This document shows positions 3,828-63,602 of a stretch of 64,000 bases of DNA, in pieces. This DNA is from Aridibacter sp. (GTDB taxonomy: Bacteria; Acidobacteriota; Blastocatellia; Pyrinomonadales; Pyrinomonadaceae): the NCBI GenBank assembly GCA_035513035.1, contig DATKCW010000011.1, positions 28,893 through 92,892 of the forward strand. The letters run 5' to 3'. Position 1 is the stretch's first letter. Each line of letters starts with the position of its first letter. The position numbers were made by a program, and so were the translations under genes. The notes under the pieces are model-generated. The model searched no databases. It was not told the origin of the DNA and saw only the letters and a program-made list of their open reading frames with translations.

Positions 3828-3852
3828 GGGCGGGCACAGGTTCCGCCCCTAC
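3828..3852 (-). repeat. GTAG-REP hairpin
   Basis: Reverse complement GTAGGGGCGGAACCTGTGCCCGCCC. Confidence 0.7.
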
Positions 3853-15364: not shown

Positions 15365-16456
15365 ATGAGATCGTGGTCAATAAGGCTCGGCAAGCTTTTC
15401 GGCATCGACGTATTCATCCACTGGTCGTTCTGGCTTCTGATCATCTGGATCGTCTATCTGCAGTTCAGCGCAGGAGGCGGACTGCCCGAGGCGCTATGGG
15501 CGTCCGGATTCGTCTTTGCCCTTTTCGCGTGCGTCGTCTTCCACGAACTAGGCCACGCCTTGACGGCGCGGCGGTTCGGGATCGGTACCAAGAACATCAC
15601 GCTCTACCCGATCGGAGGGGTCGCCTCTCTCGAGAAGATGCCGGACGAACCCGGCCGCGAACTCCTCGTGGCGATATCCGGCCCGATGGTGAACCTCGTA
15701 ATCGCGGCACTTCTTTGGGCTTACTTTGCAGTTTCCGGCAGTTTTCCCGATCCGGCAATGCTAGAGTCCGCCGAACGCCTCTCGGACGTCCCGTTCCTTT
15801 TCACGCTATTTACCGCCAATCTGATCGTCGCCGCGTTCAACCTGATCCCGGCATTCCCTATGGACGGCGGACGGGCGCTCAGGGCACTGCTCAGCACATT
15901 CCTCGACCGCGGTCTCGCGACCCGAGTCGCCGCTTCGGTCGGGCAGATCATCGCGATATTTTTCATCTTTCTGGGTTTCTACTACAACCCCTGGCTTATC
16001 CTGATCGGGCTTTTCGTTTTCCTGGGCGCCGGTGTGGAATCGGCGGGCGAAAGGACCAAGTCGGAACTTGCGGGCCTGACGGTCAAGGACGCGCTGATGA
16101 AACGGTTCACCGGCCTAAGCCCTTTCGACACTCTGGGCACGGCCGTCGAAGCGCTCTTGAACAGCCAGGAGACGGACTTCGTCGTGCTCGACGCCGACGA
16201 ACCGATAGGGCTACTCACCCGGAACGAAATAATCAAGGGGCTTTCGGAACAAGGTCCGGAAGCGAGGGTCTCGGCGTATATGAACCGGGAGTTCTTTGTC
16301 GTGGGACCGGACCTGAAGCTTGCGGACTTTCTTCAGGAGGTCGTCGCGCACGAAAGAGACGTCGCGCTGGTGATGCAGGACGGGGAGCTTGTGGGGCTGA
16401 TCAACCGGGAGAACGTGGAAGAAAAGCTGATGGTCCAACGGGCGCTGAGACAGTAG
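15365..16456 (+). CDS. site-2 protease (peptidase M50) with C-terminal CBS pair
   Basis: ORF 15218..16456 trimmed to MRSWSIRLGKLFGIDV (ATG 15365); upstream codons are repeat DNA. HELGH motif, FNLIPAFPMDGG, CBS-like C terminus. Confidence 0.85.
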   Translation: MRSWSIRLGKLFGIDVFIHWSFWLLIIWIVYLQFSAGGGLPEALWASGFVFALFACVVFHELGHALTARRFGIGTKNITLYPIGGVASLEKMPDEPGRELLVAISGPMVNLVIAALLWAYFAVSGSFPDPAMLESAERLSDVPFLFTLFTANLIVAAFNLIPAFPMDGGRALRALLSTFLDRGLATRVAASVGQIIAIFFIFLGFYYNPWLILIGLFVFLGAGVESAGERTKSELAGLTVKDALMKRFTGLSPFDTLGTAVEALLNSQETDFVVLDADEPIGLLTRNEIIKGLSEQGPEARVSAYMNREFFVVGPDLKLADFLQEVVAHERDVALVMQDGELVGLINRENVEEKLMVQRALRQ

Positions 16457-17119
16457 GGGCAGGACCTGTGCCTGCCCCCGCTATATCAACCGGACGCCCG
16501 GCCTCATCCGTAAGGCTCAATTATCAGCGAAAGATCCGGCTCGCCGTAGTGCTCCCATTTATCCCACCGGTCCACAAGATCCGACTTGACGGGATTGTCA
16601 CGGATGTACGAAACCGTTTCCCAAAGATCATCGATTGACCTGATTACGTGATCATAATATTGCCGCTGCCACAGTTTCCCCTTTTCCTTCTTCCACCATT
16701 CACGTGTAGTCATGCTCTTGAATTCCCCGCATATTTTCCCGAGGTTAGAGTCTGAATCCCCGATACCGATCAGGCCATGAAAATGATCGGGCCTAAAGGT
16801 GTATGAATAAAGGTTGAATTGACGCTTTTCTCGGAGCTGAAGCAGGAGCGATTTGCAGGCACGTGCAAAACTCTCATCGGCGAAGCACGGTTTTCGTTCT
16901 TTGGCGGCAATAGTTACGAAGTGTATTCCTGAGTCATAAGCGTCGGGAGAAAGTCGAATGCTGTTCTTTCGAAAGACACAGCCATCTATGTCGGGCATGG
17001 TGAGGATGCCTCCTTATTATTGGCTTGGTTTTTTTTTCAAAAAGGGGGCAGGCACAGGTCCTGCCCCTAAATAAACACTTATAAAATCAACGGAGGGCAG
17101 GCACGGGTCCTGCCCCTAC
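16453..17119 (-). mobile_element. RAYT locus: RAYT gene bracketed by inverted GTAG-REP hairpins
   Basis: GTAGGGGCAGGACCTGTGCCTGCCCC at 16453-16479 (+). Two copies in opposite orientation at 17044-17070 and 17092-17119. Confidence 0.75.
16504..16998 (-). CDS. REP-associated tyrosine transposase (RAYT, IS200/IS605-like Y1 HUH enzyme)
   Basis: 164 aa. HUH motif PDHFHGLI, catalytic-Tyr region QRQYYDHVIR, C-terminal YIRDNPVKSDLV. Visibly AT-richer than its neighbours and flanked by inverted REPs. Confidence 0.8.
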   Translation of the reverse strand: MPDIDGCVFRKNSIRLSPDAYDSGIHFVTIAAKERKPCFADESFARACKSLLLQLREKRQFNLYSYTFRPDHFHGLIGIGDSDSNLGKICGEFKSMTTREWWKKEKGKLWQRQYYDHVIRSIDDLWETVSYIRDNPVKSDLVDRWDKWEHYGEPDLSLIIEPYG

Positions 17120-20088
17120 TTATTATCAAGGGCTCGGCCGGCGTTCAGATTGTCCCAGTTCAGGATCGCGTTGAACACAAGGAAATAGCTGCCCTGCGTT
17201 TCCGCCCTCCAGAAAGGATTGTTCGAGAAAAGGATCACGTGACCCCTTCCGTGCGGCACATCGATCACCGCCGGCGTCTGAGCGATCTCGCCTCCGCCGT
17301 CCAGCAATCCTGACACGAGCAGTCCCTTCGCGTCGCCGTACCGGAGCACGACACGCGGCCTCATCGCCGGAGGTATCACACGGACGCCGTTCCTGAGGTC
17401 GGCTTCGGTGACCGCCTGCGCCTGCCATTTCTCCACCGGAGCCGGAGGTTCGGGGATCTCGTCCGGAGGCCTGTTCTGGACCGTGTCCGGATCTTCCGCC
17501 GAACCGCGTCCCGTCATCCTCGGCCTGTCGCTTGGCGCCCCAAACCCGCGGCCGCCCACGAAATTGCTTACGCCGAAGAAAGGCCCGTTCGCGGCGAAGA
17601 TCGAGAATCCGTCTTGATATCCGTACAGAAGCGGACTTTTTTCATCAACCGTCTTTGAGGCGAGCACGGACCCGGGAAGCCTCAGCTTCGAAGGACTTCG
17701 TTCGGAGACTCCCGGAGCGAAACCGTATTCGACTGCGAAAGACGAAGTATCGCGCGCCGTGATGAACAATCCGCCGTTCGCGACGAAGTCCCGCAGATGC
17801 TTCAGCCCGTTGAATCCAAGCCCCGGACGCATATCGTCCGTCGAATCTATCCGGCCCAGGTTCGGTGTCAGCTCGGTCTGTTTCCAGGGGATAGGATTGC
17901 CGTACATAGGTATTCCCTCGATTATCATCGACGACGCGCCTCTGCCTACCGGCGCGAAGATGATCACGTCGTATTTCGCGCGCAGGTTCGGATCGGCCGC
18001 GGCGTCCTGCGTACTTATGTAGTCGTAGGGAACTTTGAACCGGTCGAACTCGATCCTCCACCAGCCCTCGTCCTGAGTGTTCAGCCACGTATGCATTATC
18101 GCGATCCGAGGGGCGCGGACCGGATGCGTCTTGACCGAAGGCTTCGCGGCGGCGGCCTGAATCCTCAGATCGAGCGCCTGCGCCGTGCGGCTAAGCTCGC
18201 CGCCGTCGACGCCCGTGATGATGAACGAACCGCGGGAGTAATCGCGGCCGCCGGCCTTGAACGGCTCTTCCGCAGCCTCGAACGAGGCTTCGGGGAAACG
18301 GTACCGGAGAGTGACGAGCGTGTTGTCGGCGTTGTGGTTGACGAGGTAAACCGGACCGTTTCCTTCGACGACGCCGGGGACCGTGACGGCTTCGTCGACC
18401 AGATCCATCGACGCATCAAGCACCTTCTGATCGGTGACGCGGACGACCTCGACGTTATTCAGCGCTCCGAACGTCCAGCCGGTGTCGTCGTACACATTCT
18501 CCTGCGGATCGATCGGGGACCAGAACTGCTTGTCGAGCATCATGTCGGCGATGCGGCTGTACGGCTGGTCCATACGGACTAAATAGCTCCCCGCCGGAAA
18601 CTCCCTGGTTTTCTTCTCGCCCTTCTTCTCGCCGGGCACTTCGACAGTGAACGCAGACATCGCACGATGGACCTCGTTTCCCTGAGCCTTGAGAAGATTC
18701 AGCAGCTCCGCCTGGCCGGCGGGTCTTCGTTCGTCGCCCGGGAAAACGTATGCCGCGGGCCCGGCCTGCCGGGGCTTGAGGATAGAGTTCTTCGATTTTT
18801 TATAGAAATTGCCCAGGAAGAACTTGCCGTTCGCGGCGAAATGCGCCAGCGAGACCAGGATCCCTGTCTGCTGGTAGTTGTTGTTGTTCCTCTGCGACCA
18901 GAGTGTCTTCGGATACGGCGGGTTCTGACGATACCAGCGTCGCTCGTATTGCGAAGGCGAGAGTTCGCGCTCGATCGTGTCGGCGCCTCCGTTTCCGAAC
19001 GTCTCATACAAACGGCTGATCCCGTTGTGCGACGCCGCGATGAACATAAGGTAGCTCGGCGACCAGGTATCGAACGTGCCGTGCGCGAACACGCCGGGCA
19101 TTCCGAACTTGGTCATCTCGGCCACATTGTTCCAGCCGATCAGCTGCCATTCGTCGGCGAGGATCGGGTCGATCCAGGCGTTGTAAGGTTCGGTACCGAT
19201 CGTGTTGTCGTAAAGATACGGGACCGATTCGTGCAGGTCGTGGAGGACCTGCACCTTCCAGTCGATGTATGTATTGAGGACGTTACGCGTCAGGTTCAGC
19301 GACAGGGCCATCGAGTCGCGATTGTTGTCGTGTGCGACGTAGTGGCCCCAATAGACCAGGTTCGGCCAGTTTTTGCCGGGGTTTGCGAGATGCCAGTTGT
19401 AGACGTCGACCTGGCGGTCGCGCCCGTCGGTCTCGACGACCGGCGTGATCAGGGTGATCAGGTTGTTGCGTATGTCCTGTATGTACTTGCTCTCGTCAAC
19501 GGCAAGCCTGTACACGAGTTCCATAAGGGCGGTCGGCGATCCGGTCTCCGGCGAATGGATCGCGCCTGTCAGGTAATAGACCGGGACCGTGTCGGCGATT
19601 ATCTTCTCCGCTTCTTCGTCGTTGAGATCGATCTTCCTGGGGTCGGCAAGCTTCGAAAGGCGCTCGCGGTTCGCTTCAAGCTTCGCGAGGTTCGCTTCCG
19701 AAGAAACGGCGACGGCGATCATCTCTCGGCCCTCTTCCGAGGTGCCGATCGAATAGACCTTCACGCGCGGGCTCGCCCTTTCGACCATACGCATATAGTC
19801 GTGGACCTGCTTCGAGTATGGCAGGATTCCCGGCGCGCCCGCGACGTCGCCGAGCAGGGCTTTCGGCGTCGGGACCGAGCTCGATTCCGGAAGGTAATTC
19901 GTCAACGGTGAGTTGAACTCCTTACGGGTCGTGTACTCGTTGATCTTGTCCGTGTATTCGCGGTCGACGGCGACGTTCGGACTGCGTTCGAGGCTCGCCT
20001 GTTTGATAGTCTGCGCGACGAGCGCGGGCGCAACGATCGAAATGACAAGAATAAAGAGAGCGGTGCGTAAAAAGGGATTCGTGTTCAT
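17116..20088 (-). CDS. secreted M14 family zinc carboxypeptidase-like protein (990 aa)
   Basis: Signal peptide. YLTGAIHSPETGSPTALMEL (HxxE) and HDNNRD motifs of large M14-type proteins. Confidence 0.8.
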   Translation of the reverse strand: MNTNPFLRTALFILVISIVAPALVAQTIKQASLERSPNVAVDREYTDKINEYTTRKEFNSPLTNYLPESSSVPTPKALLGDVAGAPGILPYSKQVHDYMRMVERASPRVKVYSIGTSEEGREMIAVAVSSEANLAKLEANRERLSKLADPRKIDLNDEEAEKIIADTVPVYYLTGAIHSPETGSPTALMELVYRLAVDESKYIQDIRNNLITLITPVVETDGRDRQVDVYNWHLANPGKNWPNLVYWGHYVAHDNNRDSMALSLNLTRNVLNTYIDWKVQVLHDLHESVPYLYDNTIGTEPYNAWIDPILADEWQLIGWNNVAEMTKFGMPGVFAHGTFDTWSPSYLMFIAASHNGISRLYETFGNGGADTIERELSPSQYERRWYRQNPPYPKTLWSQRNNNNYQQTGILVSLAHFAANGKFFLGNFYKKSKNSILKPRQAGPAAYVFPGDERRPAGQAELLNLLKAQGNEVHRAMSAFTVEVPGEKKGEKKTREFPAGSYLVRMDQPYSRIADMMLDKQFWSPIDPQENVYDDTGWTFGALNNVEVVRVTDQKVLDASMDLVDEAVTVPGVVEGNGPVYLVNHNADNTLVTLRYRFPEASFEAAEEPFKAGGRDYSRGSFIITGVDGGELSRTAQALDLRIQAAAAKPSVKTHPVRAPRIAIMHTWLNTQDEGWWRIEFDRFKVPYDYISTQDAAADPNLRAKYDVIIFAPVGRGASSMIIEGIPMYGNPIPWKQTELTPNLGRIDSTDDMRPGLGFNGLKHLRDFVANGGLFITARDTSSFAVEYGFAPGVSERSPSKLRLPGSVLASKTVDEKSPLLYGYQDGFSIFAANGPFFGVSNFVGGRGFGAPSDRPRMTGRGSAEDPDTVQNRPPDEIPEPPAPVEKWQAQAVTEADLRNGVRVIPPAMRPRVVLRYGDAKGLLVSGLLDGGGEIAQTPAVIDVPHGRGHVILFSNNPFWRAETQGSYFLVFNAILNWDNLNAGRALDNK

Positions 20089-21719: not shown

Positions 21720-21744
21720 GTAGGGGCGGGACCTGTGCCCGCCC
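21720..21744 (+). repeat. GTAG-REP hairpin
   Basis: GTAGGGGCGGGACCTGTGCCCGCCC. Confidence 0.75.
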
Positions 21745-21745
21745 G

Positions 21746-21910
21746 GTGAGTCCGGCGAGTCGGGAGTCTATCGAGTCTGTTCAGTCTGTTCGGTCTGTCG
21801 AGTCTGTCGGGTCTATAGGGTCCGACGGGTCTGTCGGGTCTAACGGGTCCGTCGGGTCTATCGGGTCTATAGGATCTGACGGGTCTGTCGAGTCTGTCGG
21901 GTCTGTCGGG
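21746..21910 (+). repeat. nonamer minisatellite (same family)
   Basis: GAGTCTATCGAGTCTGTTCAGTCTGTTCGGTCTGTCGAGTCTGTCGGGTC..., immediately after the REP at 21720. Confidence 0.8.
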
Positions 21911-22007
21911 TGAAATGCCCCGAAGGGGCTAAGGATGGTAGCCCTGGTCAATGAAAAAAGCCGGAAGACTCGCGTCTCCCGGCTCGGATTGACTCGCTTT
22001 CCGTCTG

Positions 22008-23018
22008 CTACGCAGACGGCATCGCAGGCGTGTTCGCGTGGAAGACAGGCTTCCACGTGTCGCCGTCCTTCATAAAGATCGTCGAAGTGTAAATGACCTT
22101 GTCGAGCGCCTCGTCTCCGCAGGTGCCGTCCTGGTTTCCCTTGTAGGTCAGGATCACAAAGTTGTCGTTGACCTTCGTTGCCTTTTCTTCGCTGAGAGAC
22201 CAGCTCTTGACTTCGCATTTGTGCTCGCCGATCGACTTGAGTTCCGCTGCTCTGTCAGCTTCGCCGGTTGGGCGCAGCGAAACAAATTCAGCCGCGAGCC
22301 TCTCTTCGAACGGCTTCGTGTCATTCTTGGCAAACGCCTCCCAAAGGGTCTTCTCTATATCGAGAAGCGTCTTCGCAAGTTCTGCGTCGTTTGGAGCGTT
22401 TTCCTTGGGCATAGGTGCCGCTTCGTCGGCAGCCCCTTCAGCCGCGGTCTTGTCTTCCTTCTTGGCCTCGGCGTCGGCTGCGGGCTTCTCTTCATCCTTC
22501 TCGGCATCGTCAGCCTTGGCTTCTTCATTCGCCGGCAACGGAATACCGTGGTAGAAAGCGGCCTTCCACTTATCTCCGTCCTTCACCCAAAGCACCGCGT
22601 ATCGCCCGGCCATCTTCTCCGTCTTGCCGTCGCAGGTTCGCTCGCCCGAACTTTTTCCCGTAAGCAGTGCGACGTCGTCTGACAGTTCATGAACCTTGCG
22701 CTCGGTAGCGGGATCGCTCTTGCTTTCGCATTTGTTGGTCTTTATGAAATGGACGCCCATCGGCTTGTCCATTCGGCCCTGCGGTCCCTGACCCACAAGG
22801 TTGTCGGCGACATTCTCTTCAAAGAACGCGACATTCTTCTTCGACATTTCAACGCCGAACTGGTCGTCGATCTCTTCGATAGCCGCCTGAAGGCTCTTTT
22901 CAGCCTCTTCGCCGTTGGTGTTCGAGCCATTTGTATTGCCGGTTTCCGTTCCCGGCGGACAGGCCGCAAACATCGCGGCGCCGATCGCTATCAGGAGGGT
23001 CAAGAGTAACTGTTTCAT
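22008..23018 (-). CDS. lipoprotein with two NTF2-like (DUF4440/SnoaL-like) domains joined by an E/K/A-rich linker
   Basis: ORF trimmed to MKQLLLTLLIAIGAAMFAAC (AAGGAG RBS). Paralog of 23266..24261. Confidence 0.7.
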   Translation of the reverse strand: MKQLLLTLLIAIGAAMFAACPPGTETGNTNGSNTNGEEAEKSLQAAIEEIDDQFGVEMSKKNVAFFEENVADNLVGQGPQGRMDKPMGVHFIKTNKCESKSDPATERKVHELSDDVALLTGKSSGERTCDGKTEKMAGRYAVLWVKDGDKWKAAFYHGIPLPANEEAKADDAEKDEEKPAADAEAKKEDKTAAEGAADEAAPMPKENAPNDAELAKTLLDIEKTLWEAFAKNDTKPFEERLAAEFVSLRPTGEADRAAELKSIGEHKCEVKSWSLSEEKATKVNDNFVILTYKGNQDGTCGDEALDKVIYTSTIFMKDGDTWKPVFHANTPAMPSA

Positions 23019-23195
23019 TTGTTTTCTCCTTTGTTTAATCACTTCCGATTGGGAACGATATTCGGCCGTAAGGCCAGTGCTGCTTGATCCGGCTGGTTGG
23101 ATCTGTCGATCTGACGCGTGTTGTTGACTGTTGAGCGGAATGATACACGGCGATTCATGATCCGCAAAGCCAAGAGGTTACCGAAAATACAGCAC

Positions 23196-23257
23196 GGGGC
23201 GAGCACAGGTCCCGCCCCTACAAGAGAAGAACTGGCGGGCACAGGTCCCGCCCCTAC
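23196..23257 (-). repeat. GTAG-REP doublet between the NTF2 paralogs
   Basis: Two same-orientation copies, each ending ..GGTCCCGCCCCTAC (23196-23221 and 23234-23257). Confidence 0.75.
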
Positions 23258-23265
23258 TAGCACTT

Positions 23266-24261
23266 CTACATCTTCATCTCTTCCGAGGTGAAGTGCAGGA
23301 CCGGCTTCCAGGAGTCGCCGTCCTTCTGCATTACCGTGCTGACGTACATATTCGGAAAGGGTTGACCGTCGCAAGTGACCTTCGCAGACGCGCTGTAAGT
23401 CAGGATCACAAAATCGTCGTTGACCTTGGTCGCCTTTTCATCCGAAAGCGTGACGCCGCCGCCCTCGCACTTATGTTCGCCGATGAAATCGAGCTCGGTC
23501 GCTCGGTCCCTGATGCCCGCGGAATTGATCGCGTGAAAGTTCGGGCCAAGCTTTTCCTCGAACAGCTTCTTGTCGTGCTTCAGCCACGCATCCCAGAGGC
23601 TCTTCTCCGTTTCCATCAGAGTCTTGGCGAGCTCGGGATCGTTCGGAATGTTCGGCTTCGCGGGAGCTTCTTCTTCCTTTGCCTCTTCTTTCTCCTCGGG
23701 AACAGGCCTCTTTGCGGCCCCGGTGTCAGATCCTTCTGGCTTCGCAGGCTCTTCCTTGGCGTCCTCGCTCGGAGGGATCGCGGCGCTCTGGTAATATGCC
23801 GCCTTCCAGGTGTCGCCTTCTTTTATATAAAGCGTGGCGAAATACTCCTCGGGTATCTTGTTGCCGTCGCAGGTCCCGTCGATCGAGTTCTTGCCGGCAA
23901 GGATAGCCGCGGTGTCTGAGAGTTCGACGGTTTTGTAGCCGGAAGTGGCGGTCGACTTAACTTCGCACGGATTCTTAGCTATCCCGTTAAGCGACATGGC
24001 CTTGTCGGCAAAGCCGAAGTTTCCTCCTCCCACAAAATTGTCGGTCATAAAACCCTCAAAATACTTGGAGTCCTTGTTCTTCCAGGCCTCGCCGGCTTTC
24101 TGGTCAAGCTCGGTGAGCGTGGCTTCGAGGGTCTTTTCGGTCGTTGCGTCATTGGCGCCGCTGTTGTCGCCGGTGTTCGCGCCTGTTTCTCCCGCCGGAG
24201 GGCAGGCGGTGAATGAAAGAACGGCAAAACAGATTACGAGTATTCCGATCATCTTCGACAT
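23266..24261 (-). CDS. lipoprotein with two NTF2-like domains (tandem paralog)
   Basis: MSKMIGILVICFAVLSFTAC lipobox. Same architecture and many conserved blocks (TCDG, GDxWKAAxYH, LAKTLxxxEKxLWxA) as 22008..23018. Confidence 0.7.
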   Translation of the reverse strand: MSKMIGILVICFAVLSFTACPPAGETGANTGDNSGANDATTEKTLEATLTELDQKAGEAWKNKDSKYFEGFMTDNFVGGGNFGFADKAMSLNGIAKNPCEVKSTATSGYKTVELSDTAAILAGKNSIDGTCDGNKIPEEYFATLYIKEGDTWKAAYYQSAAIPPSEDAKEEPAKPEGSDTGAAKRPVPEEKEEAKEEEAPAKPNIPNDPELAKTLMETEKSLWDAWLKHDKKLFEEKLGPNFHAINSAGIRDRATELDFIGEHKCEGGGVTLSDEKATKVNDDFVILTYSASAKVTCDGQPFPNMYVSTVMQKDGDSWKPVLHFTSEEMKM

Positions 24262-54536: not shown

Positions 54537-54603
54537 GGGCGGGGACAAGCCCCGCCGACCATTGAGTTCCGGAACCCCGGGCGGGGACGAGCCCCGCCCC
54601 TAC
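54537..54603 (-). repeat. variant REP doublet (GGCGGGG-N-CCCCGCC stem)
   Basis: GGGCGGGGACAAGCCCCGCC and GGGCGGGGACGAGCCCCGCCCCTAC, ending 7 nt before the crcB ATG. Confidence 0.6.
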
Positions 54604-58233: not shown

Positions 58234-58257
58234 GTAGGGGCGGGACCGGTGCCCGCC
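58234..58257 (+). repeat. GTAG-REP hairpin
   Basis: GTAGGGGCGGGACCGGTGCCCGCC. Confidence 0.7.
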
Positions 58258-58334
58258 CTTCCGTTTGACCTTCTTGACGTCCGCTGCCGCTATGCGGCTG
58301 ATCGGACTGCGGCCACAACCTTGTCACATCCCTG

Positions 58335-63237: not shown

Positions 63238-63583
63238 CCTGGTGCCCTGAATCAGGGATCAGGGATCAGGTATCAGGTATCATGTGTCGGTAGTCTGACC
63301 GTCAGGGAGGGCGAGACTCAGGCGTCGGGGGTCTGCGACCAATGATCATGTATCAGGGATCAAAAGTCTCCCTTTTGCGCTCCTTTGCGAAGTCCTTTGA
63401 GTCCTTTGCGGTTAAGTATCTGCTTCTGTCCGGATTGTCCGTTGAAGATCTAAACACAAAGGACACAAAGCGCCGCAAAGCGAAGTCCGGTACGCCGCGA
63501 GATGTTTGTGAGAAGGACTCATTTACGCCCTCCCTCACGGTCGGGCTACCGACACCGCTCACAATTCACCGCTCACCGGACGT

Positions 63584-63602
63584 GGACAAGCCCCGCCCCT
63601 AC
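63584..63602 (-). repeat. half REP (variant type)
   Basis: GGACAAGCCCCGCCCCTAC; only the 3-prime arm plus GTAG (reverse complement) is present. Confidence 0.5.

Follow-up and report, generated by a model that had tools for sequence, protein, structure and literature searches.

The 64,000-nucleotide window analyzed here, from an Aridibacter sp. genome (assembly GCA_035513035.1, contig DATKCW010000011.1; G000:C11:28893-92892 in our numbering), carries a gene for a REP-associated tyrosine transposase (RAYT) enclosed by inverted copies of a repetitive extragenic palindromic (REP) sequence, a 25-nt hairpin with a 5' GTAG head. We conclude, with a probability of roughly 90%, that the locus is a REP/RAYT system of the GTAG-tagged class, and this supports the interpretation of the locus given in an original prediction made from the DNA letters. 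The genome, which is 3.79 Mb long in 54 contigs, has 57% GC and is rated 91% complete, contains a large dispersed population of the same hairpin. Although clear-cut, the system is an ordinary addition to a type of repeat system already well described in other bacteria, and it leaves current understanding unchanged.

Judged by its sequence, the 164-amino-acid (aa) protein is a Y1 HUH single-strand-DNA transposase of the RAYT type. It scores 98.3 bits against NCBIfam NF047646 (REP-associated tyrosine transposase; cut-off of 80), covering profile positions 8 to 145 of 146, and the match was recovered independently in a six-frame search of the genome. The IS200 equivalog NF033573 gave 30.5 bits, under its cut-off of 55, and Pfam Y1_Tnp (PF01797) matched at 41 bits. 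The best relative in the PDB is 4ER8, E. coli TnpA-REP (E = 2e-7, 34 bits, 126 residues), in which PEHMHCIW aligns with PDHFHGLI of the window protein and VDYIYINPV (Tyr115) with VSYIRDNPV. The original prediction had named an HUH motif of the RAYT type and two tyrosine signatures, YYDHVIR and YIRDNPV. In an alignment of 19 homologues from the clade, H72, H74, Y131, N135 and P136 are invariant, which upholds the HUH motif and also YIRDNPV, where the catalytic Y131 lies; the tyrosines of YYDHVIR alternate between Y and F within the clade, and this second signature falls away.

The noted span, 16453 to 17119, comprises the RAYT open reading frame (ORF) and its flanking REPs (Table 1). As had been predicted, one REP lies on one side of the gene and two inverted copies lie on the other, at 16453 (+), 17070 (−) and 17119 (−), and all three carry GTAG or TTAG heads that point outward from RAYT. 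The flanking hairpin sequence is identical to that of a dispersed family of more than 100 copies. As single-stranded DNA (ssDNA), the left REP folds into an 8-bp stem with a 7-nt loop (−9.6 kcal/mol). The inner right REP and its CTTTTT together have a terminator-like shape, matched in a terminator scan, between the M14 peptidase gene and the RAYT start. On the coding strand of RAYT the order is therefore the M14 gene, a REP, the REP with CTTTTT, a GGAGG ribosome-binding site, RAYT and the complement of the left REP. The genes on either side encode an M50/CBS protease and an M14 peptidase-like protein, and inspection of the neighboring genes found no TnpB next to RAYT. A sigma-70 scan gave no promoter for RAYT, and an Rfam scan of positions 16300 to 17300 returned nothing meaningful, its lone match being a chance microRNA (E = 0.86).

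The REP census was an exhaustive Hamming scan against four consensi, with a tolerance of 4 mismatches; a fuzzy regular-expression census had undercounted and overlooked the copies beside RAYT, and was replaced. The scan found 242 copies genome-wide and a single match to the reversed consensus used as a control, and the enrichment expected by the original prediction is thereby confirmed. Exact A or B consensus copies account for 76 of the 242, and 111 copies lie within 1 mismatch of A or B. Four subfamilies can be told apart: A (consensus GTAGGGGCGGGACCTGTGCCCGCCC, 90 copies, G:C stem, loop ACCTGTG), B (ending in GCAGGACCTGTGCCTGCCC, 46 copies, A:T stem, ACCTGTG type), C (ending in GCGGGGCTTGTCCCCGCCC, 78 copies, extended-stem GCTTGTC type) and D (ending in GCAGGGCTTGTCCCTGCCC, 28 copies). 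They are the combinations of two compensated dimorphisms, one in the stem (G:C or A:T) and one in the loop (ACCTGTG or the extended-stem GCTTGTC). At stem positions 9 and 21 the pair is G:C in 158 copies and A:T in 73, and 8 copies show only half of the change; at positions 12 and 18, 126 copies have an unpaired A·G with a 7-nt loop and 94 have an additional G-C pair with a 5-nt loop. All four types fold as ssDNA hairpins of −9 to −11.5 kcal/mol (z = −3 to −4), with stems of 7 to 8 bp and loops of 5 to 7 nt. The head has TAG at positions 2 to 4 in 205 of the 242 copies and G at position 1 in 230. Conservation is limited to the 25-mer, the flanks diverging between copies, and most copies are not followed by a T-run. 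Within the window, A:T stems were correctly placed beside RAYT, G:C stems elsewhere and a third type at 54.5 and 63.6 kb; the implied confinement of A:T to the neighborhood of RAYT did not stand, because 46 such copies are dispersed over the genome.

Neighboring REPs lie mostly in direct orientation. Within 300 bp of each other we counted 54 direct pairs (30 to 50 bp start to start, 41 of them within one subfamily), 14 pairs with GTAG outward and 1 with GTAG inward. The arrays consist of reiterated units of REP and spacer, 36 or 46 to 49 bp long, which indicates local tandem duplication. Inverted pairs are spaced 42 to 246 bp apart without a mode; most copies in G000 are thus not inverted pairs of characteristic spacing, as REPINs (REP doublets forming hairpins) are. 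A G:C arm is joined to an A:T arm in 7 of the 14 inverted pairs, about 6 being expected, which is no signal. The GTAG-outward pairs do not preferentially bracket genes, with 10 at 300 to 3000 bp compared with 9 GTAG-inward pairs. In the related genomes G007 and G013, GTAG REPs occur as regular inverted doublets about 100 to 140 bp apart, with arms that differ in REP type, such as GCAGCGGCTTGTCCCTGCC paired with GCAATCCCTTGTGGTTGCC; the arrangement is reminiscent of the Y and Z REPs of bacterial interspersed mosaic elements (BIMEs) and differs from the tandem arrays of G000.

REPs prefer gene ends. By crude longest-ORF gene calls, 58 lie between convergent genes, 77 between unidirectional and 15 between divergent ones, against a background of 623 convergent and 618 divergent gaps, and behind co-directional genes 59 are in sense and 18 in antisense orientation. 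Among the 205 copies with TAG in the head, 24 use it to end an open frame of 200 codons or more; the other two frames give 1 and 10.

Which RAYT goes with which REP? The six-frame profile search found six Y1 genes above the RAYT cut-off in G000 plus several weaker ones, and only two belong to the clade studied here: the window gene, which is present in a single copy, and its nearest paralogue, which is 52% identical (G000:C5:165369-165770). The window RAYT is surrounded by subfamily B and the C5 RAYT by subfamily C copies (GTAGGGGCGGGGCTTGTCCCCGCCC). Seven relatives in the genus have RAYTs of 47 to 59% identity, each bracketed by its own GTAGGGGC-headed REP with a lineage-specific stem, and in L011, L012 and L013 a single RAYT lies between a G:C variant and an A:T variant. 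The closest homologue anywhere (P0002, 60% identity), on a 1.8-kb metagenome contig, is bracketed by the exact B sequence and has the 5' leader GGAGGCATCCTCACC-ATG in common with the window gene. All RAYTs of the clade that were examined, from 9 genomes or contigs, have their own GTAG REPs on both sides. RAYT clades and REP sequences are paired lineage by lineage across G000, its relatives and the metagenome contigs. It is unlikely that the G:C and A:T stem variants are each served by a RAYT of their own. From the REPs that flank RAYTs in G000, the relatives and P0002, A and B appear to be one population of the window RAYT, and C and D one of the C5 paralogue.

Unrelated repeat families, with k-mer counts of about 12 to 89, flank each of the other Y1 genes of G000. 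At least six further Y1/RAYT-like genes lie each between inverted copies of a different unrelated family (examples in Table 1); one such repeat, CCGTTTAGAGCAGCCCTCCGGGCTGC, has a k-mer count of about 87. At G000:C6:2528-3646 two exact subfamily B REPs, separated by 1.1 kb and with GTAG facing outward, enclose another Y1 gene of IS200-like type (MANTYSRLY...), which scores 30.9 bits on the RAYT profile and has inner repeats of its own (CGAGCGCCATCGGCGCGG, k-mer counts of about 14 to 17).

Copy numbers in relatives follow the presence of the enzyme in part. A/B copies within 1 mismatch number 111 in G000, 20 in G018, 13 in G011, 11 in G006 and 0 in 18 other genomes of the genus; C/D copies number 67, 33, 37 and 33 in G000, G018, G011 and G006. 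A RAYT cognate to A/B was not found in G006, G011 or G018, and the large A/B expansion coincides with the sole genome of the four that carries one, a pattern among four related genomes that fits published ideas on the decay of REPINs after RAYT loss. In the one-contig genome G006, RAYTs of this clade are absent (best match, E = 7.8e-8). In G018 the A:T stem variant is dominant in both loop families (mostly B and mostly D), and in G000, G006 and G011 the G:C variant is dominant in both; the stem dimorphism thus shifts in parallel across both REP families within a genome.

The window RAYT itself is not syntenic with its sisters. The orthologous gap between the M50 and M14 genes has no RAYT in G006 and G011, where the neighbors are 91 to 94% identical at the protein level, or in G018 (76 to 78%). 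The B REP at the end of the M50 gene, with its TAG as the stop, is shared by G006 and G011, and in G011 an inverted B-type REP also adjoins the M14 gene. The cargo of the gap in these two sisters is a lipoprotein-like gene, of 183 aa in G011 and interrupted in G006, which has no homologue in G000. The same B REPs with differing cargo mark this slot as REP-tagged and variable. RAYT gain in G000 and RAYT loss in the sisters are equally compatible with the data and cannot be told apart. When the window was aligned with the syntenic 100 kb of G006, only this gap was informative; exact insertion boundaries and target sites of REPs were unreadable, because genes are just 71 to 86% identical in DNA and intergenic DNA cannot be aligned.

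How might such a population arise? By analogy with E. coli TnpA-REP, the RAYT would act on single-stranded DNA, where it would recognize the 25-nt hairpin plus the GTAG at its 5' end and would nick and rejoin next to the hairpin. This activity could seed and maintain gene-less REP copies around the chromosome, the RAYT gene itself staying single-copy between inverted REPs. The window enzyme, flanked by B only, would also serve the more abundant A, and the C5 paralogue would serve C and D. Most local arrays would then grow by tandem duplication of units of REP and spacer, not by transposition. TnpA-REP and the REP/BIME sequences of E. coli are reportedly the subject of a 2012 study by Ton-Hoang (PMC3333891), listed among the references of PMC3733652.

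Several points weigh against this reading. The catalytic mechanism is borrowed from E. coli TnpA-REP, to which the window protein aligns at an E-value of only 2e-7. No RAYT flanked by subfamily A, the commonest, or by D was found in G000; the original prediction had proposed a check of whether other paralogues are flanked by the other subfamilies, and the answer is positive for the third subfamily (type C, at the C5 RAYT), with no such RAYT found for the G:C/ACCTGTG type. A third RAYT may have been missed, since the assembly is incomplete and fragmented. The 11 A/B and 33 C/D copies kept by G006 without a clade RAYT imply that REPs persist without the enzyme and that copy number is loosely tied to it; the copy comparison itself involves four close kin and no statistical test. 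The orientation counts depend on crude gene calls, and 72 REPs fall inside such ORFs, many of which are probably spurious. A RAYT hidden in the 769 N bases at G000:C8:40001-40769 was considered and ruled out, as this gap is located in 23S rRNA at a contig end.

The RAYT and its flanking REPs could instead be an autonomous unit that moves between sites or hosts, rather than a domesticated, vertically inherited gene. We think this possible but doubtful. The non-syntenic position of the RAYT speaks for it, as the gap in G006 and G011 carries the lipoprotein gene in place of the RAYT and keeps the left B REP in both, with the inverted B-type REP at the right in G011; so does the absence of any RAYT orthologue above 59% identity among 21 genomes of the genus. 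In addition, a RAYT of 55% identity (P0003), with GTAGGGGCAGGTCTTGTACCTGCCC REPs of its own on both sides, is found on a 22.9-kb phage-like contig (ENA ERZ27268082 k141_1265075; L034:10001-10513; L032/L034), where it occupies the opposite strand between the genes for a large terminase and an SPP1-type portal, and the same terminase-RAYT-portal arrangement recurs in a second sample (L033). However, the genome has just one copy of the gene. The A/B family and the REP at the M50 stop are common to the sisters, which makes the system old in the lineage, and RAYT loss explains the pattern equally well. The C5 paralogue is 80% identical to a G018 RAYT and has one flanking gene in common with it, as expected for vertical descent, and outward pairs at gene-size spacing are no commoner than inward ones. 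Neither IMG/VR nor phage records held relatives, tblastn against phage records giving only one 27%-identical match, and a related-locus search of genome contigs found none.

A more specific form of this idea is that the RAYT with its REP bracket is a mobile cassette able to drop into slots that are already REP-marked. Three observations point to it: the gap that holds RAYT here and a lipoprotein gene in two sisters, the B pair around the IS200-like Y1 gene on C6, and the P0003 RAYT in a phage packaging module. We regard it as unlikely. If it were true, RAYTs would not be strictly domesticated and vertical, and REP pairs would be landing pads for gene exchange.

It is very improbable that the hairpins are host regulatory elements (terminators or mRNA-stabilizing 3' hairpins) spread by selection and local duplication, next to a transposase by coincidence. 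Their position at gene 3' ends in sense orientation, the 24 of 205 copies that supply the stop of a long frame, the copy followed by a T-run, the growth of arrays by tandem duplication and the persistence of copies in G006 without a cognate RAYT would all suit such a role. Yet near-identical 25-mers at more than 200 unlinked sites require a copying mechanism, T-runs are missing from most copies, each clade RAYT examined sits inside its own GTAG REPs, and the REP around the closest homologue is identical. A role in the host would also be compatible with spread by the RAYT.

A canonical IS200/IS605 insertion sequence with the hairpins as its ends, which the Y1_Tnp match and the hairpins on both sides of the gene might suggest, is effectively refuted by profile scores above the RAYT and below the IS200 cut-off, by the lack of an adjacent TnpB or a second gene copy, and by hairpins that are inverted copies of one sequence found more than 100 times without the gene, not distinct left and right ends in direct orientation. 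Neither a TnpB-bearing IS200/IS605 element nor a lack of genome-wide enrichment, the two findings that had been thought to speak against the REP/RAYT interpretation, was encountered. The likeness to TnpA of IS608 and ISDra2 lies in the fold family (PF01797) and presumably in the same hairpin-guided chemistry on single strands.

Among known systems, E. coli TnpA-REP (a RAYT, YafM; 4ER8) with its REP/BIME sequences (Nunvar 2010, PMC2817692) offers the closest structural comparison. Both enzymes are Y1 HUH transposases of about 160 aa without TnpB, with the HUH motif and a single catalytic Tyr at aligned positions, and both genes are single-copy inside inverted GTAG-headed hairpins that are also dispersed at high copy number. 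The sequence match is weak and the host here is a soil acidobacterium; the REP has a simple stem whereas the E. coli REP is bulged, and arrays are mostly direct tandem whereas E. coli BIMEs alternate in orientation.

The repeats themselves agree with the GTAG REP superfamily of 24 families (Di Nocera, De Gregorio and Rocco 2013, PMC3733652). In the parts of that survey considered here, a GTAG REP is a terminal GTAG beside a 6- to 13-bp stem-loop, subfamilies arise by complementary stem changes, several families coexist in a genome, and clusters form by reiteration of a REP with flanking DNA. The same parts place GTAG REPs downstream of genes, between convergent or unidirectional ORFs, with the head TAG used as a stop codon; they describe head-to-tail dimers as rare in most genomes and mention Acidobacteria only for TIR-associated tyrosine transposases (TIRYTs), not for GTAG REPs. 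The REPs of G000 share the GTAG head, the 7- to 8-bp stem and, by crude ORF calls, the mostly convergent or unidirectional placement. Given the rarity of head-to-tail dimers in those parts of the survey, the tandem-dominated organization is a mild departure. The non-syntenic RAYT, with a lipoprotein gene in the REP-marked slot of the sisters, is a second mild one.

Pseudomonas REPIN/RAYT systems (Bertels and Rainey 2011, PMC3116915; Bertels et al. 2017, PMC5581495) likewise have a cognate REP population for each RAYT clade, several such pairs per genome and one copy of each RAYT type. Their replicating unit is an inverted REP doublet of fixed spacing (PMC3116915), and REPIN-associated RAYTs are inherited vertically at a fixed locus (PMC5581495). 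The C5 paralogue appears to behave as a vertically inherited gene; the window RAYT is non-syntenic with its sisters, and inverted pairs in G000 are a minority without preferred spacing.

Nearly all work on REP/RAYT systems has concerned the Proteobacteria; the locus adds a clean and well-populated one from outside that group, in a genome unusually rich in parallel RAYT/REP-type systems. The four-way compensated subfamilies, the RAYT-less sister genomes and the non-syntenic REP-marked slot are of some interest. A simple 25-nt REP with two independent compensated dimorphisms, together with sister genomes that keep REPs without the enzyme, offers a convenient natural system for studying hairpin recognition by a RAYT and the decay of REP populations once the enzyme is lost.

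The window holds eleven REP sites (Table 1). All eight that had been listed beyond those at the RAYT exist, with the starts of three refined to 23197, 23233 and 63578 and with a degenerate head in the copy at 54537. The motif GTAGGGGCRGG occurs 8 times in the window, compared with 0.04 expected from shuffles.

Table 1. Features of the RAYT locus, other REP sites in the window and examples of further Y1 genes in G000
Feature	Position	Strand	Remarks
M50/CBS protease gene, upstream	15365-16456	plus	Stop TAG supplied by left REP
Left flanking REP, subfamily B (A:T stem)	16453-16477	plus	GTAGGGGCAGGACCTGTGCCTGCCC; TAG 16454-16456 is the M50/CBS protease stop codon
RAYT gene, 164 aa	16504-16998	minus	HUH H72-F-H74 (PDHFHGLI); catalytic Tyr131 (VSYIRDNPV)
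Inner right REP, subfamily B	17046-17070	minus	Head TTAG, not GTAG; followed by CTTTTT on the minus strand
Outer right REP, subfamily B	17095-17119	minus	GTAGGGGCAGGACCCGTGCCTGCCC; GTAG head, one loop mismatch; TAG 17118-17116 is the M14-like gene stop
M14 peptidase-like gene, 990 aa	17116-20088	minus	Stop TAG supplied by outer right REP
Dispersed REP, subfamily A (G:C stem)	3828-3852	minus	1 mismatch
Dispersed REP, subfamily A	21720-21744	plus	Exact consensus
Two REPs, subfamily A, direct tandem	23197-23221 and 23233-23257	minus	36 bp start to start
Hairpin, subfamily C (extended stem, loop CTTGT)	54537-54559	minus	Degenerate head, one base shorter
Hairpin, subfamily C (extended stem, loop CTTGT)	54579-54603	minus	GTAG head
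Dispersed REP, subfamily A	58234-58258	plus	1 loop mismatch
Dispersed REP, subfamily C	63578-63602	minus	2 mismatches
Further Y1/RAYT-like genes (examples)	C52:51968-52375, C1:123495-123938, C3:75-518, C45:196582-197040, C9:18640-18981, C13:226196-226579		

The subfamily A REPs at 21720 to 23257, with GTAG outward, enclose 1.5 kb of DNA; the corresponding interval of G006 is shorter by about 1.3 kb. The enclosed segment contains a (GGGTCTGTC)n-like microsatellite and a DUF4440 lipoprotein gene (22008-23042, minus strand), which is apparently a paralogue of the next gene (23266-24261, minus strand), the two having similar N- and C-terminal sequences.

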